Shown piece after piece: positions 15,657 through 53,810 of a DNA stretch of 64,000 bases. Position numbers and translations under genes: made by a program. The notes under the pieces are model-generated. The model did no database searches. It saw only the letters and a list, made by a program, of their open reading frames with translations, and was not told where the DNA came from. Source of the DNA: Psammoneis japonica (Eukaryota); the NCBI GenBank assembly GCA_008632985.1, contig QPGO01000067.1:1-64000 (forward strand), given 5' to 3'. Position 1 is the first letter of the stretch. Each line of letters begins with the position of its first letter.

Positions 15657-15668
15657 TTCCGTCCCTTG

Positions 15669-29500: not shown

Positions 29501-31360
29501 TGGCGTGGAACAAGCATTTCGGCAATTCAAGTTCGTGACCAGCAGCATTGAGAAGATCGCACCACAGTTGAGTGTCATGCTGCAGCTTCAATGCAAGATT
29601 GGCAGCCGAGGGTTGAGGAGATGCCCGAAAATCGTTTACCTGGGTAGATGCATCGTCAACGTAACCACGTGAGAACATGCGAAGCTGAATGGAACGGTCG
29701 GGAGATTCAAAGAACGCTCCACGCGCCTTCTGGTCAAACAAATCAAACAATGAATTGCAAATCTGGTTCCAACACTGGGGAGAATTGCCACTGCCTTGAC
29801 CGCTGCCATAAATCGGAAACTCAGCAGTGTGAGAGTACGAATCCTGGGCAAGTCCTGTTTCCGTTCGAAGCCAGTGTCGAGCCTCGTGGAGGGTTTCCGT
29901 GGCAGACGCCGTGACCTGCTTGTCCATGCCAAGGCTCCTGCTCTGAATGGCACACACAGCCGGAAGGTTCCGATCACAATACGAGGTGCAATCATTGTCT
30001 CCTGACATGAGAGTCTTCCGTCCAGTCCTTGACATCTCAAGCACAAGTTCTTCCAAAAACACCGGATCATTCGCACATTTGAATGCTCTCGTGCCACAGA
30101 TCCCTGGATTGTGCAGTCGTTCCTGTTCCATGTGTTGTGCCAAAGCTCGCCACTTGACACTGCAGATGAATTGAAAATCCGCCTCATAGACATGCACAAC
30201 ACGCAATCGGTGAATCTTGGTGTTTCCCGGTTCCTTGAAAATCATGACATTCACGACATCTTTCCAGCGGTCGCAGGAATGTCCCCACTTCAAAGTGCAG
30301 TTCAGCAAGTTCAAACGGACGTGGACAAGGTTAGTTTGGACTGCATCCAAGGCGTCCTTCTCAGGAGTGGGATCTCCGCCACCATGACGAGCAGACTCAA
30401 GAGCTCCTGGAGTCGCCAATGCGCAATCTCGAAAAATCCGTGTCTTTCGTGAGATGACACACAACGTCAGAGAGTTCAAAGCGCTGTGCCATCGATGAGA
30501 GAAGGTCGTTGTCATCAGCAAAATCTGTGTTGAAGTCTCCACAGATGATGACCTCCCGATCAGGGTCAGACAAGAAGGATTGAAGGATCTTTGACAAGTC
30601 CTGACAGAACGCTTTCCGTGGGTCGAGAGTGGAGGATTCTCTTTGCCTGAGTGGAGACACTTGTTGTGCAAAAGCAGTGGTTTCACCAGGGGAGTTTCGG
30701 TGTTTTGGACAAACCCGACAACAAGACATTGCCACAACTTGGCGTCCTCGCTTGCCATCAAACACTTGAAAGGACCACCGGCCAAGAGGATCAGATTCTT
30801 GAGATCGAAAACGACCAGCAATCGAGTTGCAAGATAAAAGAGCAGTGCCACCTGGCTTGCAGGGTGAAACAAAGGAGATGTCACTCGTCGAAAAAGTGGC
30901 TCGACCATGATGCAAAGAATTGCGCACCGTTTTCAAACAGGCAGACTTAATCGGATGCTGAGAAGTGTCCAAACAAGTTTCCGAGATGCCTGTCAGGTCC
31001 GCCTGGATCTCGTTAGCCACTTGACAGCACGAGTTAAAGTCACCACCTTGAGCGTCATACGACGTTCCGTTTGCATTGAAAGCATGTGAGCGCGTGTGNA
31101 TCCGGGAGTTTTTCCTGCAACAGGGAGCCAATGGCTTCATTGGAACGTAAATTAGAACAGTCAATGGTCCTTTGTTGTGAAGACACCCGTGAACGTCCGT
31201 CTAGAAGAGTGCGCCAAGCTTGAGAAGCTGACGATGTCGACACCTGTGTCGACTGAGTTGGATTGTGACAAGCCGATAAACGGCTGGGGGTGAGGCCGTG
31301 CTTCCGCGAAGGAAGACTGAGGACTAGACCCGGATGGAGAAGGCATCCTGTCTGCGTCAT
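26520..31360 (-). pseudogene. LINE ORF2 (AP endonuclease, RT, RNase H, zinc finger), frameshifted
   Basis: FNANG, GISET, PGGT, DPLGRWS, CGDFN (APE); IFKEPG..RLRVV, GSGQGSG.SP, GYVDD (RT); SDGS, RAEARG, CDN, WVEGHQD, LNVRADHLA (RNase H); CLHC..EDRDHILRC. Confidence 0.9.
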
Positions 31361-31393
31361 GAGAAAACAGCGGGTTAGACGACTGGGCCCACC

Positions 31394-33046: not shown

Positions 33047-33140
33047 GGCGACGGCTGCTTGGTGCACAAAACGCGTAGAATTCCACGTAGAACTCACTAA
33101 TGTGTGCTTACGTAGAAAAGTAACTTTGCCCTTGAAGGTC

Positions 33141-35059
33141 GATTTGGCGTTGCCACTTGCAGCTTCCACGACAACGTTGACCTCAGTTGGTGGTTCAATG
33201 AAGTCGTCTTTGTTGTTGGTCATGCAGCAGGAGGCATGGTTGTCAACTCCGAGGTTGAACGAGTCTGTGTCGAAGTTGTGATCGTGTTGATCATTGCAGT
33301 TACAGCCATGGGAGCATGATGCAGTGTGGCATGAGGCGTGCTGCGATTTGAATCGTGTGAGTCGGCAAGTGGCTTTGTTGCACATGATGAAATGTCGGCG
33401 TTTTCGTCGGATGTGACGCATGTTGGTCTTGAGATGGTTTGGTTTCCTTGGTGGTCTACGACTTCTCAGGAGACATTCCGTCATTCGTCGTAACCAGGAA
33501 CGCAGGAGTGGAAAGGAGCAGAGCCAGTTCAGCAGTTCCACCATCGCGCAGCAGATCATGTTGAGCGCACAGAAGAATGGCAGGAAGACTGTGCATGCAC
33601 CACAGAACAGCCACAGCCGTAAGTGCAGCTTGACTTGTAATGCGGTGCTGGCGAGCACTCACTCTTGATCCGATACGTCGTGTACGCCAACGTTTGCCAT
33701 AGAGGCAGTTAGGTCAGATTCGGCCTTGTTCTTGACGGTGGTGCAGTCCTTGGTGAGGTGAGCAGACCAATGCTCGTGATGTTTGCACCATTTGCAGGGT
33801 TTGCCCTCAACAGTCTTGGTGTGTGATTGTCCGTCTTTAGGAGCCGTGTTGCGCCAGGCTAGCTTTCCGTAGAAGAGTTGTTTCTTGCATCCGTTAGGTA
33901 GGATCTTGAACTTCTGGCGCTTGTTGTGATTGTTGGAACCCGATTCTTTTGTTTTGTTGCTCTTGGTGGAGCTCTGAGCATTCCTGTTTCCGCTGCTGGC
34001 AGAGTGTGGAGCGTTGCGAGCTTTGTTGTCGCGCAGAGTCTTCACTTTGGCTTGTAGAGCTACGATGGTTTCTTGCTCTTTCGTTGGTGCCATCCACTTT
34101 TCAGATTCGATGAGGATCTTGTGCTTGTTTTCAGCCTTGAGCATGAGAGCATGTACGTCAAGATCTGATCCATCTTCGTAGTCACTCTTGCACTTCTTGA
34201 TGGATTCGATGAATTCTGAGTCGGTGCACGTGAGGCAAGCCTTGAATGCGTTGTTCAGCAGGTCGGAACCAGTGTGGCCGTGAGTGGCAAGTTTCTTTTC
34301 CAAGGATTTGACGTGGTTGTTGAAAGTCTTGATGTTTTGACCGTCAACTGCAGCCATGCAAGCATCCAGGTTGCCCATTTGGTCACGGATTGCCGAGACA
34401 GCAGCCCTTGTGTCGACTTGAGCCTTGGATGGAAGAGCTTTGAGGCAGGCTGCGCCGCATTCCTCATCTCCAACAGTGCACTGAGCCTTTTCTTCCGTTG
34501 CCATGATGGTCTTGGAGGCCTTGTCTAGGGTGCTCTGGAGACATGCGAGAAGCTGGCAGTTGTTCTGCGCGTTGCGTTGCGCTAGATTGAGGCAAGTGGC
34601 AGATGCGGTGCGAATTTGTTCAGCTGAGATTTGTCCACACTCAGTGAGCATGTCCTTGTTCTCGACTGGCAAAGCAGGAACTGCACCATGGTTGATGTTG
34701 ATTGTGAGGACTTTGTTCCAACCATTGGTTTTGGAACGGACCGCGAGTTCTTCGAGGAAGACTGGGATGTTGGGCGATTCAAGACTGAACTGGGTGTCCA
34801 ACGGCTTGGTCGCGTCTACGAAAACGAGCGTGTCACCTTTCTTGGTGTAGTCCAAAACGTCTGCACGGGCCAGTGCTGGTGACTTGGCAAAAGGTCCTGG
34901 AGCAGCTGCTGCTGGTGGTGCAGGCATGTTGTTCACAATCGGCTGGACAGCCGCCTGGACAGCTTGTGCGATGGCGTTAGCGAGCGCGTCAGCGTCCGCC
35001 ACAATGAGGTCTTGAAGTTCCTGAGCACGTCTTTGTGCTCCTCTTGTTAAATGGCACAT
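33141..35059 (-). pseudogene. gag: Copia C gag (33659-35059) followed in the same frame by a linker and the protease N-terminus
   Basis: WCKHHEHWSAH-x4-C knuckle; FDTDS..GVDNHASCCM..DDF protease motif. Confidence 0.85.
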
Positions 35060-35379
35060 CTTGTTGGTTCGGAGAGAACGTTGCTGGTTCGATTAAGAAC
35101 ACTTTATCGCAGAGGAAGCGTGTGAGCTGATGGTTTAATTAGAACTAAGTTGACAACTGGCCTTGTGATGAACACAGATGAACTGGTTGTGATTGCTTTG
35201 AATTTCGAAAAGGTGAGAAGACGAACGTCTCAACAAGTGTTTTCCGACAAGTGTTTGAGATGTCTTCAACAATTTGGGGGCCGTACGTGCAAACAATTTG
35301 GGGCCATAGAAATCGAATGTTGACAATCGGATGTCGCAGATGTCGCGAGGCATGAATGGACGTCAACAGTCACACCCAG

Positions 35380-38300
35380 CACTCACTGTTCTCTGTTTTT
35401 TTTTTTTTTTTTGTGAGAGGAGAAGAAACAAGTGCGGAAGCAAAAAATCAAAAACACACGCAATGCATGGGGTTCATGCAGTGTGTGTTTCTGAAAGCGC
35501 ATGTGGAATGATGCAGAGGAATCAGTGTGAGAAAATCTTTGGTGTCAACAAAGATGCATGCAGAAAAAAGAAAAAAAAAGCGCGTGTAGAATGACACAGA
35601 GGAGTTGGCACAAGAAATCTTTGGTGTCAACAAAGATGCATGCAGGCTTTGACTTTCTCGTTGTTGGACTCGGATTTGCTGCCAATCGCAGTGAACGAAA
35701 CCACGTCAGTGCCATCGTCTTCAGCATGCTCTGTTGTGATTGGTTCAACATGATGTGAGTTCTCCATTTGTCCACGGAAGCAAGAATTTTGGCATCACCA
35801 AAGTTCCCAACTAACCCAGGAAGCCTTGGGAAAGTCAGGCCACTCCCAAAATGATGCACTGCTGTCCACTGCTCTCTGTTGTTCTGCAAGAATCAGTTGC
35901 ATGGCACTGCACAAACTCCAGGCCTGCAGGTTGTCACTGAAGCTGGCATCGTCCATGCCCCTGCTTCGAGCAGTGGTCCCACCACCCCGCACACCATCCA
36001 CGCTGGCAAATCAAAGAAGCTCTTCGTCCTTGCCTTCTGTTGCTTCTTGGGTTTGTCCAAGCTCTGGCAAGTCAGAGAGAGCATGTTTGGCATCGGCTCA
36101 GGCACTCCATCTCCATCGACATGATCCTTGGTTTCTTCATCAAAATTGTCCAACAGCAGATGCAGCCCAAGACTCAAACTCCCCTGATCATCATCATTCT
36201 TCAGAGGGTCAATGAAGCCACTGTCGTCACATTGGAAAGGCAAAGGGATGAGTGTCAGGCACTTGTGCTGCTCATCCTCTTCCTGTGAATCCAGGCAATT
36301 GATGCAAGCTTGTCTCCCTTTCTTCAAGGCTTGACACTTGGGGTGGTTCTCATCAAATCCAGGAACACCTTCATGCTCAAAAAGAAGAATGTCAGGGTTG
36401 ATTGCGTCAGCCCCGGTCGGCAGCAGAGCTTGAATTCTCACAGAACGACTGCCTTTCACGATCTTGGCTTCCACATGATGGCTCTTGACACAGCAACGTG
36501 ATTGACACCATTGTCTGGGTCCATCCATGCAAGAACAGAGGTCGTGAATGCCTTGTCATGTGAACTCTGAAGTGCGATGAAACCTGCAGATTCTTTTGCA
36601 CTTCAGATGCCAAGACATCATCCGTGCTGCCGGAGTTGCTGGCATTCTCCTTCTTCTTGCCACTGGCAGGGACTTGGGCAGGAGGCTTGGATGGTGCTTT
36701 CTTGGTGGCAGCCTTCTTCTTGGCACTTGTCTTCACCATGGTGTCTTTGTCTTTGTCTCCTCTGGCAGGAGTGTCAACGTCTTCTTCATCATCTTCCTCC
36801 TTCTCGACTGCCTCTTCTTCTGCCACACCCACTTCCTCCACAATGTCCTCATCTTCTTCTTCTCCTTTGGTGTCTTCTGCCTTTTGCTTTCCGGTTTTGC
36901 CCTTGTCAGACTTGCACTTTGCTGTCAACATTGCAAAATGCATGGGTCATGATTCAACAATGCTGCAAAACAACATCAACACATTGCAACGACATAAAAA
37001 GAAACACACATCTGCTGACACCATCTTTTCCCAGCTTTACAAAATTCTCACAGGTGCGGCTCGTCTGTGTCCACCAATGGCTTTGTCCAAGTTGGAGTTC
37101 TTTTGTGGCCTCCAAGGTTTTTGTGCAAGAAAAGACGAACCATTCATTTGCCTGGAATTTTTCTTTGACGCAGGCAGGGTGCATCTGCGTTGGAGGGATC
37201 CCAGCCATGCAAGTGCTTGGCACACTCTTGAGCTTGTTGTTTCTTCCAGCGGGGTGCTTTTGATGACTGCTCAACGTTTTGGTGTGCTTCTTTTTCTTGG
37301 AGAGCACTGGCACACCATTTTGCATGTTGTGTGTGCAACATTTGTGTGTTCATTGCAATTTTGGGTGATGTTCAACTTTTGAATTCCGGCCAGAATTCTA
37401 AAAATGTCTGTTCATGATTTCCTGCCACTTTGATGCAAGCGATCACCTCGAGAGAGGGAACTGCAAAGAAGCCCATGGCAACATGCAAAAGAAGGACATC
37501 AGAGGTGCACAAAAAAATGGGCAAATCAAATGCAACGCTTCCATGTGAGATGTCACTGTCATCCAAACAGGCCAGAAAACCACTTGCCTGCCCTGTGCTT
37601 GCATGTGCCATTCATGCAGATCTCTTGTGTGTTGCCATGCACTTCTTCGTGACATCCTCTTTCCTTGCCATTGCTCGCATCAAAGTGGTTGGAAATCGCA
37701 ACAAAAAATGCCGGCCAAATTGGCCAGAAAATGACCAGCATTAAAATGCAGAAATTGGTGTGTGAAGCAATGTGATTGATGCATTTGAAAATGCACAGTC
37801 TCATCCACCATGCTGTGGGCAGGGAGGTGGGGCCATGGGGCAACAGCATTTGAGTGCATCTTTCTGTGTGCATTCCGCACTGGAATGCTGCATGTGAGGC
37901 CGGTGTGCTGACCTGCAGCACCCAGCAACACAGTGGCGCCACCACTCTCAATCAACAAGAAATCGAGACATGACACGAGTGAAACACAAAGCAGAGATCG
38001 GTTGGTGCCAAATGCCAGCACTGTTGTTGTTCTGTGTCATTCGCAGACCTGCAACACATCTGAGATGATCATGCAAATTGTTCATGCCAGCGTCATTGTT
38101 CTGCCACAGTTGACTCTGCAGATTGTAAGACAACAAATCAAGGGAAGTCCAGGAAGTCATTTCATTTGTTCAAGTTCAAGAAGGCAGGACTGCAACATGA
38201 GGTCTGCACAAATGTTCTCACTGGCATTTTGTGTGGATTCATGGACCTTTTTCTCCCAGAGATTGGCCAGATCTTGCCATCTTCCAACACAGTCTGAAGC

Positions 38301-40150
38301 ACAATGTTGAGAAGAATGAGTGGCTTGAAGCAGATGATGGATGTGGTGCCAAGGACCCTGACTTTGTAAAGACTCCTGCTGGCATTTGATGCGTGGAACC
38401 AAAGGCAGTTGTCAGGGCTAGATCCATTGCCAGGAACAAGGAGAGACAGCCAATGACCATCTCAAGCTCTTCAAGTGTGCCTTTCTGAATGCTTTCACCA
38501 CAACATTGAACTTTGTGGCCAGTGCTTCTGAGCCTGCGCCATCGTCACACAGCTGTCTTTCCAGCATGGCAAAGGCTCATTCAGCACAGCAGACAAATGT
38601 GGTGTCCTGCAGAAAACCACCGATTTGAAGGATTTTCCTCTTCCAAGCACTCCAGCAGATGATGATTTGCAAGAGAGCAAACAGTGTTCTTTTTGTGAAC
38701 TGGAGCATTCATTGACAAAATGCGTGCCACGCCCCAGCATGCCGTGCATGCCAACCTTTGCCCAAACCTTTTGCTGTCATGCTTTGTGCACACATGTGCA
38801 GTGGCCAACATGCAGTCTCTGTGCTGCAACATGACATGAGCACAATGAGACCGGTTTGGTGCATCTTGTCGACCTGGCCATTTTTGTTGAAGCCGCCAAC
38901 ACCAGGGACAAAGGCAGGGCTGGAACAGATCCGCATCATGGCCAGACAACCTGACTTTCCCGCAGCTTCTGGCAGGAAGCAAGCAATTGGAAAATGCTGG
39001 TGTGCACGTTGAAGTAAACTTCTGCGTCACAATTGCGTCAGCAGCTGCAAGTTTGAATGACCAGGATTGTTGATGAGAGAACAGTCTCAATGAGTTGGAT
39101 TTGAGTGTGCGCCCCTCCACATCCAATGCAGAGCTTCTGGGATCCTGGCCAAGAACGCTGAGAAGCAACTTGATGCCAAGAATGCTTGGGAGTCTCACAG
39201 AGCAGAGCTTCTGGTCAAAGCTCAACTGCTCTCCCGTTCAGAAGCTCAGGGTCATTAAAAGCAATCAAATCACATCTCCTGCCTTGTCCTTGACTCCACA
39301 ACTCCCTTGGTTGACAGAGTTGGGCAGAGCACAACATCCTGGGTGTGGTGTGTGGGCAAAGAAGAAAAACCTTTTCCAAGCAGCAGTGTGATCCAGTCAC
39401 AGTGATCAGTGTTCCTGTCCCAAACAAAGCTGGAAAAGTGAGAAGAATGAAAAGTCCCAAGTTTGACCAGTCACAGTCACAAAGACTGGACCATGTCATC
39501 TTGACCTGGAAGTGCCCTCCTTCAAGATGGACAAACCGAGAAGTCACAGTTGGTGGGTGGATGTGCTGCTGGCATGTCGTCTCCATCTAAACTTGGGGGT
39601 GTGAAGAGGACTCAAGTGCACGCCAAGCAGTTCTCCACATCCAACACAGAGCTTCTAGGATCCCAGCCAAGAACCACTGAGAAGTGACTTGACACCAAGA
39701 ATGCTCAGGATTCTCACAGATCTGAGCTTCTGGTCAAAGCTCTGCTCTGCACAAAGGGGGGATGGGTGAAACCAAACCCTCTGCAGGGTTCTGTGAAGAC
39801 AAACACAGGGGCTCGCAGGACCAAGAGAAAAGTGATGACACCTCGGGCACTTTTTGAGCAGCAGCTTTTGATGCTGTGGCCAACAGCATTTTGCTGCATT
39901 GGCCACAGGAAAAAAAAAATTGCAGGCTCAAAAAAGCAGAAGAAATGCCAGTTCCTGCTTCCCCATGCAGAAGCTCAGGGTCTTCAAAAGCAATCAAATT
40001 GCATCTCCTGCTTTGTCCTCAACTCTGTGACTCCCTTGGTTGACAGAGCCCCCCCCCCCGATGAGACACCCAGGTGGTGGCCACCTTGAAACCATGGTCA
40101 CACAGGACTGCATGCAAAGTCCTGCACCACCAGAAGCACATGTGTCCAAC
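35380..40150. mobile_element. Decayed repeat region, possibly including a PIF/Harbinger-type DNA transposon remnant on the minus strand (~35.9-39.0 kb)
   Basis: Depleted of TpA and CpG. Acidic/Lys-rich ORF remnants at 35893-36943. HTERCTQMLL..SHTNFCI near 37740-37880 weakly resembles the Harbinger IE.AFG.L..LHNFCI motif. Confidence 0.3.
39119..40048 (+). repeat. Dispersed direct repeat in two blocks (~39119-39223 with ~39638-39741; ~39238-39318 with ~39967-40048)
   Basis: catccaa..cagagcttct..ggtcaaagctc and cagaagctcagggtc..ccttggttgacagag each occur twice, differing often by TG/CA swaps. Confidence 0.8.
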
Positions 40151-42478
40151 TCAGATCAACTGTGTTCACGGAGTCTTGGCAGACAAGCCAATGGAAAACC
40201 ATCCTTGCTGCTGATGTCGTCAATCACACAATGCACTGTCCCTCCTTGAGCTGTTTGTTCATTTTTGCAGTCACTTTCCACTGTTCATGTTTTGTCCTTC
40301 GTGTGTCACAATCAATTTGTGATGATGGACAAGCTTCAAAATCCAAAATTGAACCTCTCAAATCTCTTGGTGGCAATTTACAACATGTGGACATTCAGCA
40401 ATGCATCACATGAATGACAAAGTCTGTGTGATTTACATTTGTTGTTAATTGGGTGTGTTAAAATTCCAAAAGTGAACAGATGTGTTTGCTGCTGCATGTT
40501 GACATTTAAATTCCAAAACTGCTTTTCTTTTGGCCCGCGCTGGTGTCCGGTCGACCACCATCCAGCATCGCCAATGATGCTGCTGCTGGTGCAAAAAAAA
40601 ACAACAACACAACACAGTGCTGTGTGCAACAGAAGGCACAGTGGGCACAGCGCTCCATGGATCATGATGAGTTCAAACCAAGAGAAACATTCAAAGGGGC
40701 GTCGAGAAGGTGGAGATGAGAAACAATGAGCTGAATTTGCTCAGAAGAAACGAGCCTCTTCTGTTCAAGGCAGCAACATTGCAAGCAACAAGAATTGCAG
40801 CAAGTTTGACAAGAGCAAAATGAGAGCAAAGCAACACAAAGCAGAAAAATGTGGTGACACAAGGGGAAGAGAAGAGGGGTGGGTGGGAAACAGTGGCAGG
40901 CAGATGGAACGCAACAAAACAGCGACTTCTGCAACAGTGACTGGGCATGTGTCTGGCAGTTGCAAGGATGATGGACTCTCTCCAATGAGTCAACCCTGAA
41001 AGCAGCCAACAAAGTTCAATCATGCTCAAGAAGTCACCCACAGTGAAAGCGAGTGACAATTTTCTGGAGCAGTTGTGGTTGAAGGGATGGGGGCAGACAC
41101 AGAGGAGGACATGGGGGAGAACAAGCATGAAGAGAATTGGAAACTCTTGCAGCTGGTGAAACCAATGAGGCTGATGTCGCATTCATTGCTGAAGCAAGAG
41201 TGGTTGAGGACAACGACCACACAGAGCTTCACAATGAAGTTGACCGTCTGCAAACAATGGCAAAAGAAATGCAGACAAGAGATGAGCAGACAAGAAACAC
41301 TCCATTGTGCAGGGTGAAGCGGTTCCTGTTGCCTTGGAAGCAAGCTCAATGGCAGAAGCCGCAACTGACAAAGAGCAAAGGAGCCATGACACCCACAGAA
41401 GAAAAGGCGCAGATGGAAATTGGTTTCAACACCAGCCCTGCTGGTTGTGGCCAGTGACAGCCATTGTTGCAGTTGCCACTGGTGGCGGAGCCGGTGTTGG
41501 CATCTCTCAAAGCAACAACAACAAGCAACCATCATCAACAGTCCCACAAACTGCACCTGCACCATCACCTTTGCTTGAATCATCATCAACAATGCCTTCC
41601 CCAATGATGCCTTCACCACTGTCTTTAGAAGCTGCTGTGGAGCTCACAGAAGCAAACTTGTTTGACAGCGGTGCAGCACTCAGTGACCCATCATCGCCTC
41701 AGTCTGAGGCTCTGCAGTGGCTGCTGAGCAATTCTGGGCTGGATGGCTGCTCGGATTGCCGCAAGATGCAGCGGTTTGTGCTCACGACTTCACAGTTCAG
41801 CACCAATGATGGAGATGGGTGGAAAAACTCAACCAGCTGGTTGAGCAACAGCCATGAGTGTGATTGGCACAATTTGTCTCACTTTTGTGGTCCACTTTGC
41901 AGTGACGGTGAATTCATCAGTGCCATCTTTCTGCAACAGGAAAATTTGGTGGGAACTTTGCCACCAGATCTTGTGCCATTGTCAGATTCCATGCGTGAGT
42001 TGATGCAATCATGTTTTAAAATGCAAGAGTGAGTTGACTCACATTTTGTTTGTGCAGCAACCATTTTGTTAGAGTGGAATTTTCTGTCGGGTCCTGTTCC
42101 AACCAAGTTTGGACTGTTGACAAAAGCTCGGCAGGTTTCTTGAGTTTTGGACATTCCCCACAAGTGAGCACAATTGACACCACTCTGAACTTGTGCAAGT
42201 TTGTTTAACTTCATGTTGCAGGATTTCTCAACTTGGGTCCCAACTGGTTGTCGTTGTCCATTCCCAGCAAAATTGCAGGCATGACTGGTCCAAGTGAGTT
42301 GCAACAGAGGTTTTGTGCGATTGGCGTTGGTTGTCCTCTGTGTCCAATGTTGTGTGTGCCTGGCCATTTCTTTCTGGGAAAATCTCTGTTGTGGGTTGGC
42401 TTTCCTTTGGAGAAAATGAGCTGACGGGCAATGCACCTTCAGAAATCAACCAAACAACAAAGTTGGGTGTAAGTCATC

Positions 42479-45400
42479 TGATGTGCACATTTTAAAAATC
42501 GAAAATTCCCAAGATTTGATTCCAGGAATCTTGTCAAAATTCGATTCTTGACAACGCACGTGACTCGCGCTCGTGGATTTTTGGAAATGCCCATTCTTGA
42601 GAGAATCCCCCCCCCCTTCATTTTCAAAAATGCATGCCTTTCATTTTCGAAAATGCCGTGCTTGCTCTCCCGAGCAATGCAGTCCACACAAACTTTGTGG
42701 CAAACACCATGAACAATGATTGTCTCAACCACATTGTGCGCTGTTCGAACGTGATGCATTCCATCACAAAAGTGGAAGGGGGAACCCAAACCACATCCAA
42801 GATGCTGACACAAGAGCAATTCCATCACATTGAACACCTTCTTTCACATTGTGAGTCTGGAGATGCAGCAGCCGGACTTGATGTCAAACAATGGCGATGC
42901 AAGCACCCTGAATGGAGCCAGACATCAATGAAATGTTTTGTTCATGACAGATTGACGTGTTGCCAAGATGCAAAGGTTTGCTGGCCAAAGGACAAACGTG
43001 TCATCCATGAACTCATGTGCTTTGACATCATGTTGCAAGCTCATGAGATGGAAGGCTGTCACCGTTCCATCAAAGCAACATTCAGCCATTTGTCCAATGA
43101 TTGCTGCAACACAGCTGCCAACATGGTTTGCGTTTTTTGCAATCATTGTCCTCATTGCATTTCTCTGAAGTCCAAGAACAAAAAGTTTGCATCCATTGTA
43201 AAAGACAGGGGGAAATTGCAATGCTTCGCAGCACCAGTTTGCAACACCCTTTTTTTACAGCTGTCTTGAAGATTCCCACTTTCTGAGTCACCCGACGACT
43301 CCCGTGACAAACTCAATTTGTGCACTCTTTTCATGGAACTCACTCTCATTGGCAACATCACCACCACTGCTTTGTGCTGTTTTGTTGTTGACAACCATGC
43401 TTTGTTTCTGTTTAACCCACACTCAGCCATCTGGCAAAATGCGTCATTCAGCAACATTGTCACAACAATCCCTCGGAGAGCAAAATTCTTTGTCGTCTCC
43501 CAACAAACTTTCAGCCATGACAGAAGAGAAGCATCACAAACACTGTTTTCTAGCCAAGGCTTTTGGCATGGATGAGGTGGGCAGTCCTTCCACTGCCAAG
43601 ATGTCCAAGGCATTGACGGAAAAGGAGCACGATCACATCGTCTGCTTGCTTGATCACATCATGGACATGGGTGACATTGAGAAAGGTCTTGACGCAAAGC
43701 AGTGGTGCCGCAAATGTCCCAAGTGGCACCACATGAATGACAAGCACTGTGTGGAGCATCCTCAGGAGGGTCCTTCACTGTTGTTTTGTAAAGGAGAGGA
43801 AACGCCCAAACAAGTCATTCACCAGATGATGTGCTTTGACATGCTCAAACAAATCCACTCATTGTCCAGTCACAAGAAGGTGGCATTCACTCATGCTGTT
43901 GCACAGGACAAGCACTTTAATGTCACCCAAATCATTGTGAAGGCTTTCATCAACACTTGCCCACAATGTTCTTTGAAGCAGCCATGGGCTCCAAAGCAAA
44001 AAGGGGCCGTTCATTCAAAAATGGTGCTGCTCAAACATGGTGCAGTTAGGAAGACTGTCTTTTTTGCAGCGACAGCAATCAATCATCCACAAGGGCAAAA
44101 TCCCAACCTCTGCTTGAATGCCCATTGAATGGTTCAAAAACAAATCACCACATTGCAGCAAAAAGACAGCAAACTTGTTCAGAATTTTCTTGTGCACCCT
44201 GACAATGTCTTTGTTTTTGGGCTTCTTTGGGTTGTCCCTCCACACTTCCATCACTTGCACCAAGCTTTTTGCAGCTGCATTCACTCCACTCCTCTCTGGT
44301 GGGCAACCCAGGCCTGGCCAACCAAGAAGAGCATCACAATGGGGTGCCTGGTGGGTTTCCAGTCTTGTTGATGTCAACCATTGGTTTGCACATGGCATGT
44401 CCAAATCCAAAAGCATCGTCAGGTGGCTCGAACCAAGACACAGACAGCATGACCATTTCAGTGGCACCAAAAAAGCAGGACTTGTGTGGATGCAACTCAA
44501 AGCACATTTGCACAGACACAATTTGAGGCAGTGCAAGTGAGTGCTTGTCAATGAGTGCAACAATGAAGTGGAGAAAAACCTGGTGATGGCCTGTTGGCTC
44601 CATGTTGCGTGCAACTCGGTGTGCATCAATCCCGGCACATCCCTTGAATTTCTCCAAGTTGGCAAAAAGCAGCTCATGATCAACGCACTTCAGATGATCC
44701 GGCAGGTCTTGGTGTGCTTGGATTGCATGTGTCATCAGTGGCAGAGTCATTTTGATCTGCCATGCAGAGTTGTCCACTGACGACCTGGAACATCCAACAA
44801 CAGTGTTTCTCACATTTCCAAAATCATCAATCCCCAAGACGGATGGCACGGGTGCCATGGGTTCGTTGTTGCTGTTGTGGTGGTCAGAGTGACAGTCAGA
44901 GAAGCAATCAAATGCATTGATGAGGCAGCACAGGGCCTTGGTCTTAATCTCTTGCATTGCACCCAGCAAAAGGCAAACAAAATCTTCAACTCAGTTGGGA
45001 AGTTCTGGATCAACCCAAGGGTTAGAAGTGAACTTGGGTTGGAGAGTGTCCATGATTTGAGAGAGAATCAAAAAGAATGCCATGGCTTCCTTTGTGCCCT
45101 TCTGTTTGCATGGCCTTGCAACACCATTGGCATGTCCCTTCCTTGTGGTGCTTGTGTTGGTGATTGCACGGCTGATGGTGTGTTCCTGTCTTCCCCATTT
45201 CCAAACATTGAGACTCTCTGTCCTTTGGTTTTTCATGATGTTTCTTGATGAGTTTCTGTGAATGATTCCAGTCTGCTCAATGTGTCAGGTGTTGTTGGTG
45301 AAAAGAATTGACAACCACGAGAAAGCATTTGGAATGATCTCTGTCAATGTTGTAGATTGACCAGACAGTGGATGTGTCATTGGATCCAAGTTCCAAAGCA

Positions 45401-47600
45401 AGGTTCACAGTGTTGTCTTGGCAGTGGGGAACGTTGGCTCTGCAAGGCAAAGACACCTGCAATGGAGACTGAAATGTGACATGACAGCAGAAAACACATT
45501 TTTCTTGGTGCTTTGGAGACAGCCAGCCAAGGTTGTTGATTGGCTTGTCCTCGGAAGAGTCATCGTTGAAGCACTCAGGGCAGACCTCTTTTAAAAAATA
45601 AAAACAATGTTGAACATGCTCTCCTCCTTAAACACCTTTTCCCTCAACGAGGCCTTGGACAGTCCAACTTTCTCTCAACAGCACAGGTGAAAGTGTTCCT
45701 GCTGGGCATTTTAGCTGGTGCACCAACAGAAGATGAAGATGACACTTGAAGCCAATTAGAAGGTTTGGATGTGACTGAAGAGGTGGAGTCAAGGCTGGCA
45801 GACTGGACCAGGGAAGATCTTGTGCGGCAAGAACACCAGAGGTTCCAATGTGTCCGATGAGGCAGATTCAAAGCTGAGAGACCAAGACCTGTTAGACCAG
45901 GACTTGTGGGACCTGGCGCAACAAGACACAGGAGGTTCCAAGACATCTGAATGGGTGGAGTCGAAGCTGCGAGACCTGGACAGAGAAGACCTGGTGCAGT
46001 GCAACACAGGGCTGCAACTCCTGCTGCAGAACTTTCCATGCAGCATGTGTTCGTTTGCAGGAATCCCTTGAGCAATTGCATCCACAAGGAGATGGGAACA
46101 GGAACACAAACAAGGGCTCTGGTTGGGAACTGGTGCTGCCGACAGAGACAGCAACATTGGGAGGGAGAGCAGCCACCAGAACGATGCCCAGTGGTGGACC
46201 AACTGGAGAAGGCAGACTCATGACTGGCCCCAGACCAATGCCTGCTGGCACTCAAAGAGAACAGTGGCAGTGCGGAGAGCAAGACCTGCACCTGTGGACC
46301 TGGAGCAAGAATGAGACCAACACCTTGAAATTGACCAGGAGCAACATGACCAAGAGCAGTGTGCAGAGCGTGACCATGACATGGACCTCAACCCAGAACT
46401 GGTGTGGGGTGAGTGACAAGTGGAGGAACAACCATGACCACAATCTTGACCACGAACCATGCCACCACTGTGATGACCAGCAATGGTGGGAGAAGAGGGG
46501 GCTTGCCTGGAAGAGGGTTTCTTGAAGGGACGGCCCTTTCCCCTGGAATGCCGAGTTTGCTTTTTTGCAGTCAATGCAGTCATGGGGGCATGCACAGGTG
46601 CCCACTGAACTGGTGCTGAAGGGAGTGCAGCACATTGAATTAACTGTGCTGGAGCCAGAGGCTGCAACGGTGCAGGGGGGGACGTGATGGTGTGGCTGCG
46701 ACAACGGCGATGGAGCAGCAACGGAGTGGCAGGCTGCAACGATGCAGTGGGAGCAATGCAATGTGGCTGAGACAACGGTGACAGAGTTGAAGGCTGCAAC
46801 AATGCGGTGGGAGCATGACAGCATTGCTGCAATGACCGCAACAGAGCGGCAGGCTGCAATGATGCAGTCGGAGCATGACAGCATTGCTGCAACAACAGCA
46901 ACGGAGCTGAAGGCTGCAATGATGCGGTCAGAGCATGACAGTGTTGCTGTGACAACAGCAACAAAGCTGAAGGCTGCAATGACATGGTTGGAGATGAATT
47001 GGTGAAAATTCTTGACAGAAAGTCACGGCCAGGCAATGAGCTGCAATGCCATGATGAATGTGCAGAGCAATGCGGTGATCGGCAAGGATGCTGTTCTGGA
47101 GAGACATCATGGCAACAAGCAGACCCACCACATCCATGATGGGGTGAACAACAAGGACAACACACAGGGAAGTCATTGCGGATGTGACATCTTGATTGTC
47201 TGGCAGAGCAATGGAGAGAGGAGGGAGGTGAGAGGTCAAGACCTCTTGACCAAGGTGGAGCACCACTGTCACCTCTCACAAGATGCATGGCGTGAAGCAG
47301 GCAGATGAACAACAGTTGGTGCTGACAGTGTGGACAGAAAGCAACAACAAAAAGGCTCGCGGTGGAGTGAGAAAAGCAGCGATGACCATGTTGCTTTCTC
47401 TTTTGTGTTGGATGTGATGAGCTGGTGGTTGCGTGGTGTGCCCAAAATGACTGTTAAATTTGTGCCAACGTGCAACAATGACCGTCACCAAATGGGCACG
47501 ATCAAAGATTCTCAAAAAATGATGGTGTCATTTTTTAAAATGACCATTTTGGGGAATGCTGATTTTTGAGAATCCACGTTTTCGAAATTCCATGCAACAC
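42479..47600. mobile_element. ~5.1-kb insertion in intron 4 of the dead LRR copy, with two tandem degenerate HHCC integrase zinc-binding modules (Ginger/KRBA2-like)
   Basis: Host sequence breaks after gtaagtcatc and resumes at gcccttg. VIHELMCFDIMLQAH..H..T..VFCNHCPHC (~43000-43160) and VIHQMMCFDMLKQIH..H..T..AFINTCPQC (~43810-43970). Confidence 0.6.
46718..46985. repeat. 60-bp minisatellite, about 4.5 copies
   Basis: AGGCTGCAA at 46731, 46791, 46851, 46911 and 46971. Confidence 0.88.
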
Positions 47601-48184
47601 TTTGCCCTTGATTTCTGGCCCCTCCACTTTCATTTCCTTTGACTTCAGTTGCAGCCGCAAATCTCATGGCGTCCCTTTTCTCATGTTGTTGTCCTTCGCA
47701 GATTGCCTTGACATCCAAGACAATGACTTTGCACTGCCGTTTACGTGTCCTGGGTTCACATTGACTTGCTGGGTTTTGAGCGAAGATCCTTCAAATGCTT
47801 CCTGTCGGGAACTCCAACAGTTGTCACGTCATGTTGATTTTGGTCCTTCCGGCAAGGATGCAATGGTCACCGCATGAGTGCAGGAGGCATTGTTGCCAAT
47901 GCCATTGCACTCAACTTGCATCAAAGAGCAAAACATGCAAAAAGAAACAAAACAAGGCAAACAAGAATGACACGTGGTGATTGACAGCCGCTGTGCCCAA
48001 AACAAGATTGAGCTTGAAAAGGGCGTCACCCTTGGCTTGTCTTTCTGCGCAACGACAATCTGTTTTTTTGCAAAGCACCAAAAAACCAGTTTGCTTGTCT
48101 CCTTTCCTTGCAACATGTTCTCTCCACTGATTCAATGCGCATCCCATCTTGGGATCCTCGCTGCACAGACTCAATGGTTTTGTC

Positions 48185-51100
48185 TGACAGACATCCGAGA
48201 TGATGGGGAGCACACTCCCTTGTGTCAGACAGACTGGCACAGACAGCATGGAGAGATCCGATGATCTCTCCTTTGCTCACTTTCTTTCTCATCCAGTGCA
48301 CGATTGTCATCTGTCCCAGACATGCATTAGATTGTCCCGATGCCACCAGCCCATGAGGTCATGAGCAGCAGTGCGCTGTTCCTCTTCCTCTGTTCTCCTC
48401 TGTCGCAATGCCCGCTGTGTGATTTGGCAATTTTTCATTGTTGAAATCGTCATCATTGTCACAGCTGTTTTTTCGCCTCTCGATTTTGTGATCAGACGAC
48501 CACTGTAAAACACATGCCAGAGCTCTGTGCAGGAATTTGATTTTTTCCCGTGCAACCATGGTGAACAAAACCCCAAGTGCCATCGATTTGACCAAGATCA
48601 AGACGACACGGGTTGAATTCAGCCCACATGATCTCTTGCCCAATGCACGCCGTCACCTGAATGCTCTTTATTCTGATGAGACACCTGCTCCTGAAGATCT
48701 TCTGGATGGATTCACTCCTCAAGGCCTCAAGAGCAATGCTGTCACTGTCCTCCGTCGTGAGATCCTTCACAATCTCATCATCCCCCAAGCTGCCCTGACT
48801 GAAGATCTTGCGTGCATCGGACCGATCATTGAAAAGGCCCCTCTCTTTGTGGCCATCCCTCAAGACTCCCCAGTTCATCTGAACCTCAGTGCTCTTCAGA
48901 AGGCCATGATCAAAGTGATCTCAGAGAACGATGACACCACAAAAGCACACACTGGGACTTTGCGTTTCCATTTCAGCCCTGGTTTTGGCATCATGATTGC
49001 TGGGATGATGTCTCAGATGATCCACATCCGGACCCAATGCCTGCTTCAAGTTCTGCATCCCCGCCGGTTGCTGCTGCAGGTCCTGCTCCTGAAGACTTTG
49101 CCAAGGCCTTGGCAACTCATTTGCCTGGTCCAAACGAGCATGGGCAAGCCATGACTGATGGGTTGAAGAGCATTTCAAGTTCTCATGCATGTGCTGAGTC
49201 CAAGTCATGCCCAGTTGCTGGGTCCACTGCTTGCAGCTCTGATGCTGCTGTTGTTTCTCATGTTGAAGATGCGCTCACTGTGGACACTTGGATGGATCCC
49301 ACAGATGCCAACTCCTTGAATGCCAAGTCTGCCATGTCTGTTGTGGAACCTGTGGGTGAGCCACCTGCAGTTGTTGATGCTGGATCCCTTGCATTTCCTG
49401 CCAAGTCGTCGGCACTTCCCGAGAATGTCCATGCCTGCCTGCTCAAGACCCCGAAGTTTTTTGTGTCTGGCGGCCCCATTGTTTTGCACAATGGCGGTCA
49501 CATTGGTCCATTGGATGGTTCATGCTGCATCACCAAGGTCACCCATGAGCTGCTTGATGCCTCTGTGGTGCCTTCGCATGATGCGCATGACACCCGTGGA
49601 CACAGCCACAGCTCTGTTGGTTGTCAAGTCGCTTTGTCTTTGGATTTTTGGCTTGGCTGTCGTCAATTTTGGATGTGCGGTGCCGCCATTCCTTCCACCA
49701 TCCAAACAAGACCAATGGGAGCAGGGCAGTTTTATGAAAGAGGGCCACGGAGTCTTGCTGCCTTCTTCCGCTGTTCTGCAGAATTCTCCATTGCAAGGAC
49801 CGTTGTCGTGTCTGAAAGTGCTTTTCATGGTGCTCCAGACCTGTCCACCATTGCTGACGATGATCCTTTGATTCCTGATCAGGGGGAGGGCACAATGTGG
49901 CACAGAGGAAGTGTGCAAGATTGATCAGCACGCAACAGCCTCCACTGGAAAAATGTTGGGTGACCAAGATTCGCACGTCACAGAGAATTCCACAACCACA
50001 CGTCATCTTCTTCCAACAATGAAGCACTCCAGGCTGCACTCTGTTTGCTTGCTGAGCTTGGAAGTGGGGTGACCCTGAAAGAGCGCAACTGAGTCTCACT
50101 GCCTCCCATTGCATCACTTCTGTCCTTCACCGTCAGGACCATTGTTGCTTTGAATGGCATTTTTCCTGTCACCCCCGACCTGTCGACCATCCCTGATGAT
50201 GACCCTGCATTTTTTTGATCAGGGGAGGGATTCCCACAACCTTGAGGCCCAGCAGAACTCCAAAATCCTTCGCAACGAGCTCCCGACATTTTTCTTTTAC
50301 CAGGCATGTGACAATTGCACATGCAAAAACACATGGATCCGACATGTTTGCTCTGCAAGTGCCTCGAAAGAGGACACAAGTCTGCGACAAATTTACGCAG
50401 AAATGTGCGAAAGAAAAACCCGGATTTTGGGACATGTTTGGGACATGGCTGGGCACAAGGATGATGCAGAGGAAGCATGTCAGGCTGTTGAGAATTCTGC
50501 TTTCCACCAAAACACCTCACACTTGACGATCGCGTTTTGAACGCCGTGCGATGCTCACCTCCAATGCGTCACTGTTCTTTTGACATTGAGCGACTTTACG
50601 ATCCATTTTGTTCTCCCAACATGTTTTTCAGGGGCAACACAAATGGTGGTGGAAGCATTGGTTTGTCAGGTGGATTGTTGTTGCTTCATTTTCACCGCAT
50701 CATCCACCATGGTGGATTTCCATTTTTTGGCCCTGTCTCCTCCAATGAGTTTTGGCGACAGTGTGACTCACCAGAATGTCTCTTTGCTGCCAATCATTTG
50801 TGGATTGACAAAATTCTTCTTTGGTGCACAACTCAATTTATCCAAAAGATTTGTTGGGACTGCCTTTGACATTTTTTGTCAAAGACCGATGCGCTGATCT
50901 CGGGACGGATGTTTTTTGTTCCCAACATGCTCGTCGCTTGTCGAGATGTTGTCGTTGATTGTTGTCGTGTTCGCAGACCAAGTCTTGGCCATTTCTTTTG
51001 GTGCTCTTATTTGTTTTTTGCTGCTCTGGTCCTCTCTTTCATTCGGATTGTCTCTTTTCTTTCTTGATGAGCTTTTGCATTGCTCATCAGGGGAGGGTGA

Positions 51101-51266
51101 CAGACATCCGAGATGGGGAGCACACTCCCTTGTGTCAGACAGACTGGCACAGACAGCATGGAGAGATCCGATGATCTCTCCTTTGCTCACTTTCTTTCTC
51201 ATCCAGTGCACGATTGTCATCTGTCCCAGACATCCATTGGATTGTCCCGACACCACTGGCCCACAA
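48185..51266 (+). mobile_element. 3.1-kb non-autonomous LTR element, ~170-bp LTRs (48185-48356, 51098-51266), with a gag-like ORF remnant and no recognisable pol
   Basis: Near-identical direct repeats starting TGACAG; PPT aggggaggg before 51098; PBS-like GGTCATGAGC at 48357; TSD-like TTGTC/TTGCC matching TTATC in the live copy. Confidence 0.85.
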
Positions 51267-52621
51267 TTGCCAATCCATTCTTGTTCCTTCATGGGAAAAT
51301 GCAGCGGCTGGAGTGGGGTTTCTGTCATTGGAGCCAGTCGCCGGCCTTGTCTTTGACGCACTGGGCACAGCAGAAGAGCTGCACCTCCCTGACATCCTCC
51401 TTGCTTCATGGCATTGGCAGTCTTCAAGATCCAAGCTTGTCCCCTTTGCAATTCAGACATTGTGTTGGCACTCAGTGCAATGTTCAAGATGTGCTTCAGA
51501 TTCATCTGATGCTTGGTCATCAAGCAGAGAGTTGAAGAGCCTGATCAGCAAACAAAGAAGAAGCAGCACATGAGAGGAGGCAGCACGGAAAGAGCTGCAG
51601 GGGTGGGAGCAAAGAATGGGTGCACAGGACAGCACACGGGGTGTTTTAAAGAAGGGGCAGGAGATGCATCAGTGCAGCCAAAGTTTGAAGAGAAAGTGGA
51701 GAGCATGGGCAGAAAGATGATGAACAACGTTGCAGCTGAGAGTTTGGGTGGCCCAATGAGAAGGAGCAGAGGAGTGGCAAGAGGAGCCAAAATGGTCAGC
51801 AGTGATTTGATGCCAGGCAAAGTCAGCCGAGCACAACACACAATGCATGGCGGCCAAAGTGAGAGCATGAGAGAAGGCAACATGGGAAGGGTCAGAGCCT
51901 TGGAAAGCAGAGGACCAAGTTAGACCAGGGAGGCTTGGGCTGGGAGCAGAGACCAGGGGGGAAGGAGCCAAAAAGGAGTCGATGGAGAAAGAAGCCAAGA
52001 CCACCAAGGTGATCAACAGGAAAAGGAAGGAAGAAGATCCCATCATCACAAAGAAACTGAATGGTGAGGGGGGAGAAGCCATTGTTGGAAGAGGAGGCAG
52101 CAGGTCCAAGAAACTTCAACCTCATGCTTGCTTTGTGTGCTTCAGTTGGAGCTGGACAAGAAGGGTCAGGCAGACCAGGAAGAGGGTGAGGGGGAGCTTT
52201 GGAAATGGTGACATCACAACAGCAATGCAGTGATGATGGGAAGGGTGGCAATGGAAGCAAGAGGAGGAGTGGTGATGCCAACATCAGCTGGGCAAAGGAG
52301 GGGGCAGTTCAGAAGGAGATTCACAGGTTCAAGATGAACGTCGCCAGGGTGTGTGTTGCACAGTTCAGCAAGAGGACCCAAGGTTTGGGTGATGACAAAA
52401 ACTGCATCTCGGATGCCGTTGGACAACAGGAGCCCAGATTTGTGGTTGCCTTTGCAAGCAAAGGCATGATCACTGCAGGTGTTGAGGGCAGCATGGCTGC
52501 AGGGGCACGGGGTGCCAACAAGCAATGGAGGCAGCACAGGGAGGCAAAGCTTGCGTTGGGCAGCAATGGTGCACTCATCAGAAGCAATGTGAGTGGCATG
52601 GGAGCAGTGGGAGAATGAGCA

Positions 52622-53810
52622 AAGTGGGAGACTGGTGGTGAGAGGAGACAGAAGGGAAGGCAAAAAAGAGCGCATCTGCCACATCAATGACATGGATGAA
52701 ACCAACAGACTTTCTGCAGCCGAAACACTGCAGGACTCAATTTTGTGTTGACACCTTCTGCACCATCCAGGCAATCTGCTAAAACACGTGACATGGTTCG
52801 ATTTTGACAGGAATGGGCAAACTCTGTGATCCAGTGTTTGTCAAAGCTCATGACTGAAAAGTTTTATTTCAGTCTTGCCTTTGCTGCATGTTTCAGCAAA
52901 AGCTGAGTCGTGCATGACCAACAATGCACGTTTCAGCAATTTCTGAAACCTGCTGCATGTTTCAGCAGACTCTGCTGCAACCTGCCATGTTTCAGCAATT
53001 GCCAATGCCAACTGCATCAGATGCCCATTTGGGGCCCACATGTGGGCCGTAAGATTTTTTTTTGGCCCATGTGAGGGCCGCAAATTTTTTCAAATCTTCA
53101 ACGACAGAGACAGCTCATGAACAGACCCCCCACAGTCAAATTTTCCACACCCGAAAACACAGGAATCGGCACTCCAGCTGTTAAAAAAGTCCCACTGGTT
53201 GTTGTTGTGGCCTCTAAAATGTGCTTGCATTTTTGCGCAATTTTCCGCCAATTTCTCCCTCCACCATGGTGGACCCTGGGCTGGCCCCGCCGGTGAAGGA
53301 TGTTTGCTCCAGCAACCTTGGACACCTGACAACCTCATTGGGGAAATGCCAGATGTGTCAGAATTGCTTGCAGTGGGAATGGACATGCCTTTTTCACTTG
53401 TTCAAGACATGCCGCGAAACCCGGAATTGCACTCTGCTGCCAAAGCACCCTCTGCTCCCGCACATGCCCCCCCTCCAAGTCTTCCTGTGGAGCCACCAGT
53501 GTGGCCAAGAGAGCTCGGGTGCAATTCAGCTTTGCCAAACAAAAGTTGATTGTTTCTGACATGAAGCACTTGCATCCTCAATGCCAGCTGCTGCACTCCG
53601 CAAAGGAAAGCATCGCCGGGGCATCAACGAAGGTGTGGAGTCAGCCATCTGTCTTGTTTTTGTCCCGAAGCAAGTGCTGGGAGACTGGTGGTGAGAGGAG
53701 ACAGAAGGGAAGGTAAAAAAAAATGCATCTGCCACATCAATGACATCGAAACCAACAGGCTTTCTACAGCCGAAACGCTGAGGGACTCAATTTTTGTTGG
53801 CATCTTCTGT
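52622..53810 (+). repeat. ~140-bp direct repeat (~52622-52760 and ~53672-53810) at the right border of the repeat domain
   Basis: gggagactggtggtgagaggagacagaagggaagg..ggactcaattt occurs twice. Confidence 0.85.

Follow-up and report, generated by a model that had tools for sequence, protein, structure and literature searches.

What removes the dinucleotide TpA (TA) from long blocks of a diatom genome, and what decides which sites escape? The question is raised by a window of 64,000 bases of Psammoneis japonica DNA (bases 1–64000 of contig QPGO01000067.1, C69 in our labelling), taken from the assembly that we searched (label G000; 91.4 Mb, 597 contigs). Three kinds of DNA alternate in this window: genes, with an observed/expected ratio (o/e) of around 0.6 for TA and 0.95 for CpG; long-terminal-repeat (LTR) and LINE-like elements (at about 12–24 kb and 27–35 kb), in which TA o/e is mostly 0.05–0.25 and CpG is intact; and saturated blocks (1–5000 and 35380–53700), with TA o/e of 0.03–0.05, CpG of 0.07–0.33 and CA/TG of 1.7–1.9. 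The same TA-poor islands recur over the following 120 kb of C69 (156 of 184 one-kb windows were usable; the remainder held N). Here we find that TA is converted almost exclusively to TG or CA, on both strands alike and independently in each repeat copy, following a code in the flanking bases and a helical phase of 10.2 bp, and that CpG decays in the same places. We consider it just about probable that adenine is deaminated directly on duplex chromatin.

Surviving TA sites and the flank code

The block at 35380–53700 retains 60 TA in 18,321 bases (3.3 per kb, o/e 0.05), compared with 701 in 17,102 bases of control DNA (window 5100–12200 and 54000–64000; o/e around 0.6), which is gene-rich, so that retention ratios are approximate. 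An earlier reading made from the letters alone (the sequence-only reading) placed the residual sites almost entirely in TTTA/TAAA, TTAA or TTAG/CTAA contexts. These hold 51 of the 60 survivors and 148 of the 701 control sites (p 2e-23), an enrichment that bears the claim out, although at 85% 'almost entirely' was too strong; the other nine are mostly GTAA/TTAC, CTAG and CTAC. TTA or TAA occurs at 55/60 survivors (control 284/701), YTAR (Y, pyrimidine; R, purine) at 35/60 (control 114/701) and RTAY at none of the 60, as against 225/701. Retention relative to control rises with the length of the adjoining T/A-run, from 0.011 with no run through 0.073, 0.25 and 0.71 to 1.2 at a length of at least 4. 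Every example that had been quoted was located (41626, 42017, 42070, 42493, 48506 and 52865).

Part of the block is a duplicate of host DNA, the unmutated source of which polarises the changes; the assembly holds only one other long copy of that source. At 124 TA aligned in three pieces of the duplicate, the outcome was TG at 52, CA at 49, retained TA at 8 and another at 15. None of the 67 TA without a flanking T or A survived, as against 8 of the 57 with one. The sequence-only reading had singled out a TTTAG site that survived beside a GCTAC site that did not, and the alignment reproduces this exactly: TA 8312 is retained at 41626, and TA 8319 has become TG at 41633. The duplicate also carries double changes (CA>TG 14, TG>CA 6), and it seems that TA (or CG) steps, once newly made, are themselves removed again.

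Saturated DNA shows the end point alone, and we therefore collected partly converted copies. Three families with 55 copies, 731 sites and 6481 conversions supplied a rate model: Gypsy1, the window element and 20 further copies at 94–96%, of which L009 retains 255 TA and the other 20 sequences retain 37–96 of these; Gypsy3 (reference L054, 19 copies); and Copia2 (reference L083, 16 copies). The last two were reached through weaker matches and are named for their likeness to window elements; L069 and L087–L089 were excluded as non-members. Copia1 (5 copies against L030), Gypsy2 (1 against L037), the LINE-like element (3 copies) and the host duplicate served as independent tests. Copies span around 1% to more than 80% converted, with gradients inside copies. 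In Gypsy1, alignment columns mix TG and CA, and pairwise TG/CA concordance has a standard deviation (s.d.) of 0.044 (0.038 permuted) and a maximum of 0.776 (permuted mean maximum 0.751). No copy pair agrees beyond permutation; the copies were therefore hit independently after insertion, and shared ancestry of the conversions is unsupported.

The competing-risk model treats each TA as two adenines with their own flanks, and exposure is set per copy and, later, per 500-bp bin. Its first fit used 190 of the 255 Gypsy1 sites, after ends, columns with fewer than 15 copies and columns of uniform outcome had been dropped; the pooled fit used 731 of 740 reference TA (11,131 observations, bins without conversion being dropped). 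In the Gypsy1 fit, context lowered the cross-validated negative log-likelihood from 3948 to 3098, so that flanks matter after normalisation, as the sequence-only reading had proposed; their influence repeats in all three families and carries over to independent DNA. Coding selection as the source of the TG/CA bias was rejected (synonymous term 1.11, interval 0.93–1.28, with zero cross-validation gain), and general AnTm tracts such as AATT had no effect (1.16, 0.87).

The base 3′ of the hit A matters most. In the pooled fit, with G set to 1, the rate is 3.21 for +1C, 2.89 for +1T and 0.74 for +1A, and at −2, before the T, it is 1.49 for A, 0.77 for C and 0.63 for T. Farther out, +2A (0.48), +3T (0.57), −3T (0.52) and −4T (0.72) are slow relative to G and −3A (1.24) is fast; an adjoining CpG lowers the rate to 0.31 (CGTA) or 0.51 (TACG; interval 0.36–0.67). 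The sense-strand ratio is 1.02 (0.93–1.14). All directions are identical in each of the three families fitted alone. Per strand, the fast tetramers are ATAT (1.0), ATAC (0.76), CTAT (0.66), GTAC (0.61) and TTAT (0.41), followed by GTAT and CTAC (both 0.40), ATAG (0.37), TTAC (0.30), ATAA (0.24) and TTAG (0.20), and the slow ones are CTAA (0.15), GTAG (0.13), GTAA (0.09), CTAG and TTAA (both 0.08), a 12-fold range over the 16 tetramers. Summed over both strands, TTAA and CTAG (0.17), TTAG/CTAA (0.35) and GTAA/TTAC (0.39) are slowest, and these classes make up 51 of the 60 survivors.

The rule is thus not that TT/AA protects, as the contexts first named would suggest: a pyrimidine 3′ of the A is fast and a purine slow, on both strands of the palindromic TA, and CTAG is as slow as TTAA. 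The slowing by CpG is a further amendment; it is invisible in the saturated block because CpG has already decayed there. Within one site, the A before a pyrimidine was hit 1143 times against 493 in Gypsy1, and 252 against 101 in independent copies. In an independent set of 497 sites, +1C (2.7), +1T (3.3), −2A (1.7) and CGTA (0.35) repeat, and +2A, −3T and TACG are below significance. The Gypsy1 model separates the 60 block survivors from control TA with an area under the curve (AUC) of 0.89, scores 0.84 for 119 survivors farther along C69 and 0.83 for survival in the host duplicate (strand hit 0.65, p 0.01), and its rates correlate with survival in Copia1 (rho −0.40), the LINE-like element (−0.60) and Gypsy2 (−0.32). 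Strong extra protection by A-runs of at least 4 was seen in Gypsy1 (244/290 survive) and is unconfirmed in the other paired sets, which hold 2–4 such sites each; among saturated survivors these runs are enriched (56/179 versus 86/2445).

Spectrum, strands and reality of the changes

At reference TA the outcomes were TG 3373, CA 2751 and other 101 (19 of them CG), so that 6124 of 6225 changed TA (98.4%) are single transitions. In heavily hit bins the hazard per A is 1.45 at TA and 0.0026 elsewhere, a difference of around 500-fold. Between little-hit and heavily hit bins, private A>G outside TA rises 3.3-fold, from 0.79 to 2.64 per 1000, and non-CpG G>A from 1.08 to 1.61 (the two oldest Gypsy3 copies were left out of this spectrum). 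The non-TA A>G changes favour a 3′ pyrimidine (AAT 4.8, CAC 3.8 and AAC 3.4, versus AAA 1.0 and AAG 0.8), and GAA is among the lowest contexts (12/8744). This shared preference suggests that the agent acting at TA leaks to other A. In the raw counts, each of the three families has more TG than CA on the sense strand, but this apparent transcription-strand bias vanishes after context is taken into account.

Errors of polymerase eta at WA sites (W, A or T) are patch-wise and strand-coordinated and include a share of transversions. The AA>AG excess that a WA signature predicts, and that was not obvious to the sequence-only reading, is absent here (15/491, compared with 10/444 for CA>CG and 15/379 for GA>GG; p 0.37). 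In heavily hit bins, A>G outside TA runs at 2.95 per 1000 after A, 2.82 after C and 2.14 after G (AA>AG 66/22385 against 92/37513 for CA and GA together; p 0.25), with TA some 500-fold higher. Only 1.6% of TA changes are other than TG or CA. Neighbouring conversions show no strand coordination over 2 to 3000 bases (|z| under 1.6; Gypsy1), and neither processive single-strand clusters nor patch-wise strand runs were found. Polymerase eta is thus largely refuted, even though TA is a hotspot on both strands for this enzyme too (PMC7884765). The wider class of polymerase routes, in which a WA polymerase of this type resynthesises silenced DNA or an adenine glycosylase is followed by Rev1-type insertion of C, can draw on five to six Y-family polymerase matches in the genome; given the spectrum, we regard it as very improbable.

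An A>G change on one strand is T>C on the other, and the data are symmetric to either reading. The target might therefore be the T (5′-R-T-A-T-3′ on its own strand), with thymine modified or excised and the change fixed as C. Loss of T is expected to yield transversions, however, and a share of 98% T>C is unexplained by simple chemistry; no candidate enzyme was looked for. We rate this route as improbable.

Contigs of sequencing run X1 span the whole block, and pieces of 644–1314 bases match it with 0–8 differences. X1 is the sole covering run and may be the assembly's source sample, hence it is not independent confirmation. From 40 listed of the 170 X1 differences we dropped 3 in an LTR and 10 in a paralogue cluster; the remaining 27 include 14 A>G/T>C changes, and 3 of these 14 turn a surviving TA into CA (0.2 expected). 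These three TA may be still segregating or recently hit. An artefact of sequencing or assembly, such as miscalling of modified TA, is scarcely credible: strand-random miscalls at around 700 former TA would yield hundreds of TG/CA swaps, the copies differ widely in conversion and have internal gradients, and CA-to-TG double changes require two fixed steps.

CpG decay and helical phase

Eighteen copies combine hit with spared parts; in these, CpG loss amounted to 112/2295 in TA-hit bins and 14/1830 in spared bins (Mantel–Haenszel odds ratio 6.1). CpG loss thus tracks TA hits within single copies, and the two processes therefore share domains irrespective of age. Domains of this kind correspond in other diatoms to transposon islands with CG methylation (PMC9998398). 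Several copies of families with 17–20 copies are barely hit, and one copy of the two-copy host gene is hit and the other spared; because many high-copy members are barely touched and gradients occur within copies, being repeated is probably insufficient.

The distribution of hits along elements differs between families. In Copia2 (L070–L086), conversion declines in 9 of 16 copies from 0.8–1.0 at the 5′ end to almost nothing on the 3′ side, and none shows the reverse, which suggests nucleation at the 5′ end of the element and then spreading. Each end of Gypsy1 (the window copy and L001–L020) is spared or hit almost all-or-none, differing among copies, and Gypsy3 is hit mainly mid-element.

After context is removed, the site residuals oscillate with a period of 10.2 bp (pooled z 6.1, 0/400 permutations, periods 6–16), and in Gypsy3 alone z is 7.0 (0/400). 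This test was post hoc, and we had expected the opposite sign beforehand: protection of inward-facing TA steps is rejected. Residual conversion correlates with in-phase AA/TT 6–79 bases away (r 0.193, 0/2000 permutations, 696 sites; 0.13, 0.13 and 0.29 per family), with a maximum at period 10.2 and phase 0; the correlation is 0.187 after reading-frame centring and strongest at 30–55 bases. In independent copies the rate ratio is 1.31 (1.13–1.55) per approximately 1 s.d. (Copia1 1.36, host duplicate 2.56). Because helical phase over 30–90 bp shapes part of the fingerprint, an active-site preference cannot be all that it reflects. For CpG loss the relation is a weak antiphase (rho −0.07, p 0.02). 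In the same residual test strand choice had no periodicity, and the phase of a neighbouring 'permissive' TA had no effect (r −0.03). A period of 180 bp appeared in Gypsy1 only (2/400) and is a possible artefact of the 500-bp bins.

Positions rich in AA/TT are usually taken to turn their minor groove towards the histones, although the source for this also disputes that AA/TT alone forms nucleosomes (PMC2943623); around nucleosomes, other mutational processes are known to show a 10-bp periodicity (PMC10498010). Together, the 10.2-bp phase and the CpG decay point to action on nucleosomal, methylated duplex DNA, probably with the major groove facing out. The phase would also suit a context-blind TpA enzyme, with flank and phase effects arising from the shape of the DNA, its setting on the nucleosome and uneven repair: across the ten NTAN classes, the duplex rate falls as the published ability to form nucleosomes rises (rho −0.64, p 0.044, n = 10; a weak, post hoc result; PMC2943623, Table 1), and glycosylase access depends on rotational setting (PMC10498010). 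We hold such an enzyme to be a slim prospect, as the choice of strand within one duplex site is strongly context-dependent and aperiodic, and the phase of neighbouring permissive sites has no effect.

A two-step route resembling fungal repeat-induced point mutation (RIP) is unlikely, although several results would suit it. A methyltransferase-type mark on TpA, such as N6-methyladenine, would be laid down in silenced chromatin and followed by deamination or miscopying, and both the flank code and the phase would belong to a methyltransferase that flips out its base. In its favour are the near-absolute dinucleotide specificity with a palindromic target, the duplex-symmetric flank effects (CGTA/TACG, −3T/+2A), the nucleosome-scale phase and the co-location with CpG decay, as well as 27 C5-methyltransferase family matches in the genome; moreover, adenine carries its N6 in the major groove, outward-facing at AA/TT-phased positions. 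To our knowledge, TpA methylation is known in no eukaryote, and MT-A70 had 0 matches in the genome, which is weak evidence because the control was also blank and other adenine methylase folds were not searched. Diatoms do have a RID-related methyltransferase, DNMT4, with undefined function (PMC9998398). C5 DNA-methyltransferase domains (L095–L097; C301 and C297) also lie within TA-erased DNA (o/e 0.07–0.10), two with an internal stop; these are possibly methyltransferases carried by mobile elements.

Table 1. Features of the window (positions within the 64,000 bases)
Feature	Position	Strand	Remarks
Saturated block	35380..53700		TA o/e 0.05, CpG o/e 0.33, CA and TG o/e 1.7; 60 surviving TA
Second saturated block	1..5000		9 TA; 7/9 with TTA/TAA, 0 RTAY
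Gypsy-type LTR element, Gypsy1	11899..17287	-	Partly converted, CpG nearly intact; Pfam RVT_1, RT_RNaseH, rve
Second LTR element, Gypsy2	17287..22195	+	One barely converted copy (L037), an independent test; class presumed from motifs
Copia-type element, Copia1	22469..35375	-	Nested insertions inside; Pfam RVT_2
Copia1 LTR pair	22469-22724 and 35120-35375	-	pol frame 22746-26432
Nested LINE-like element	26520..31200	-	No Pfam match; LINE-like label presumed from motifs; two further copies as independent test
Unmutated host gene region	6834..10564		Source of duplicate; TA and CpG normal; polarises changes
Tandem units	9662-10075		Three 138-bp units in intact host region
Mutated duplicate, piece 1	40159..42478	+	Of 6834-9154; 84% identical; surviving TA at 40379, 40434, 41626, 42070, 42206, 42470
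Example of the sequence-only reading	41622..41637	+	TTTAG retained at 41626, GCTAC to TG at 41633
Mutated duplicate, piece 2	47604..48184	+	Of 9155-9727
Mutated duplicate, piece 3	51275..51838	+	Of 10007-10564
Surviving TA reading CA in X1 contigs	39256, 40446, 45757 (39256..45758)		X1 possibly source sample
Decayed tandem array	46718-47017		60-bp units, within saturated block
Short high-copy repeats	48020-51274		Contig depth up to ~4000; between duplicated-gene pieces
Host gene	54186-55412		Named relatives all diatom proteins (Attheya, Seminavis, Amphora, Cylindrotheca, others)

Candidate agents and meaning

The simplest account of these results would be a nuclear enzyme that converts the A of TpA to a base read as G, most simply by deaminating adenine to hypoxanthine; we infer that A rather than T is the target and deamination its chemistry. 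The substrate would be double-stranded, nucleosome-wrapped, CG-methylated transposon chromatin, hit at single sites on either strand; replication would then fix TG or CA, and a converted site would no longer be a substrate. Such an enzyme would demand a 5′ T almost absolutely (around 500-fold over other A), would work best with a pyrimidine 3′ of the A and another A ahead of the T, and would be slowed by T/A-runs (T upstream, A at +1/+2) and by adjoining CpG. TA has one A per strand, and survival would therefore require poor flanks at both; the sites poor on both strands would be the YTAR class (TTAA, CTAG, TTAG/CTAA) and A-tract edges. Nucleosomes would cause the period and methylation the CpG decay, and the role may be one of defence.

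Several points weigh against direct deamination of adenine. Sequence alone cannot separate chemistry at A from chemistry at T, and the account names no enzyme. TadA-type enzymes require single strands, whereas the conversions form no visible strand runs; TACG, in which native TadA acts, is a slow context in the diatom; and the strictness for 5′ T (1.45 versus 0.0026) is far above the 5- to 10-fold of TadA8.20. The genome contains predicted ADAT2-like (L026, in which GCxN has its N) and TadA-like (L023) genes, but finding ADAT2 proves nothing, since it serves housekeeping. The genome also has EndoV (PF04493 match). On the other side of the balance, AAG/MPG (PF02245), the glycosylase that removes hypoxanthine, had no match in the genome, an absence that is unproven (the control matched in 4 of 14 genomes). 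The phase had the reverse of the expected sign, and it is not significant in Gypsy1 alone (peak 10.2, z 2.0, 287/400) or in Copia2 alone (peak 10.6, z 3.2, 45/400); in Gypsy2 alone its rate ratio spans 1 (1.12, 0.89–1.42), and among 178 saturated survivors it has the expected direction with p 0.10. For the extra A-run term (TAAAA), the value of 0.12 comes from 16 Gypsy1 sites; in Gypsy3 and Copia2 it is 0.55 (0.13–1.72), and 0/3 such sites survive in the host duplicate.

Two further kinds of deaminase gene were noted. There are two separate A_deamin (ADAT1/ADAR-type) genes, L098 on C40 and L099 on C79. A dCMP-deaminase gene is present at two loci (L021 on C41, L022 on C317), which encode an identical protein and are normal in TA content; the pair is either an allelic assembly duplicate or an unhit duplication.

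The sequence-only reading expected the fingerprint to discriminate between candidate enzymes; it excludes several and singles out none. Fungal Tad2/Tad3, ADAR and amphioxus ADAT2 share A-to-I chemistry. Fungal Tad2/Tad3 editing also has U at −1, but the +1 purine and −2 pyrimidine that it favours are the reverse of the diatom code. ADAR acts on RNA and slightly favours +1 G or A (PMC9600606); here +1G is 1 and +1A 0.74 against around 3 for pyrimidines, with the strands equal. BjADAT2 of amphioxus favours GAA and hairpin loops (PMC10354150), and GAA is among the slowest non-TA contexts here. ABE8e and TadA8.20 convert A to G at TA sites genome-wide (PMC13225742), and engineered TadA prefers a 5′ U by 5–10-fold and a 3′ U by 1.5–2-fold (PMC12027372). 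The diatom process likewise favours a 5′ T and a 3′ pyrimidine (+1C 3.2, +1T 2.9), but its preference for 5′ T is around 500-fold, and UAG and UAC rank high for the engineered, not natural, enzymes whereas TAG and TACG are slow here. A TadA-type enzyme fits the code in direction only.

RIP in fungi is a dinucleotide-specific transition hypermutation of repeats, on both strands and tied to methylated chromatin. The diatom process shares the dinucleotide transitions, the repeats and both strands with RIP, and is opposite in chemistry: RIP makes TpA from CpA, whereas TpA is removed here, and CA>TA was seen 0/261 times in the host duplicate.

The closest counterpart is the TpA hypermutation of integrated nucleocytoplasmic large DNA virus and virophage DNA in Bigelowiella natans (bioRxiv 10.64898/2026.01.13.699255), for which the preprint finds this dinucleotide rule in mutation-accumulation lines and puts ADAT2 forward, untested there. 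As in B. natans, TpA>TpG and TpA>CpA are nearly exclusive, at the DNA level and in foreign or silent DNA: A:T>G:C changes are confined to TpA on both strands, and the changes occupy sharp TA-poor islands on C69 and transposon copies, with genes spared (integrated viruses were not looked for). TpA-depleted coding sequences of B. natans are likewise enriched in transposon domains. The diatom belongs to another supergroup, and here transposons and a duplicated host gene are hit, to saturation and with CpG decay. In its main text, the preprint gives no flank context beyond TpA, methylation link or periodicity. Beyond this preprint, we found no paper on the process, and none on periodicity of TpA hypermutation, in a literature search whose coverage leaves out most subscription journals.

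Erasure is also visible in proteins. The converted pol frame at 12176–14974 is still open, with 0.75% Tyr and 3.97% Cys; none of 120 protein relatives is Tyr-poor (2.56–4.48%), and 11 metagenome relatives have TA o/e of 0.45–0.73 without RTAY loss, although metagenome contigs collapse copies and both comparisons carry little weight. Because TA is erased to TG or CA, dead diatom elements can have open frames in which Tyr has become Cys or His, and a Tyr-poor, Cys-rich frame is a protein-level marker for spotting TA erasure elsewhere.

The diatom process is a variant of a kind described once, to which it adds a strand-resolved code, a CpG link within copies and a helical phase. For the one published case, the main text names no context wider than the dinucleotide. 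The code, with its 12-fold range over 16 tetramers and its CpG, A-run and phase terms, is an acceptance test for candidate enzymes, and a test of whether the chlorarachniophyte and diatom processes form one system; it already removes preferences like those of polymerase eta, ADAR, fungal Tad2/3 and amphioxus ADAT2. It is possible, although short of probable, that diatoms and perhaps other stramenopile–alveolate–rhizarian (SAR) algae have a natural DNA adenine editor that would act on nucleosomal, methylated duplex DNA where the major groove faces outwards, with near-absolute TpA specificity and the code R-A-[T-A]-Y, as a mirror of fungal RIP. If the agent does prove to be a natural editor of adenine in duplex or chromatin DNA, genome defence would gain a new chemistry, one that would also be of interest for base editing.

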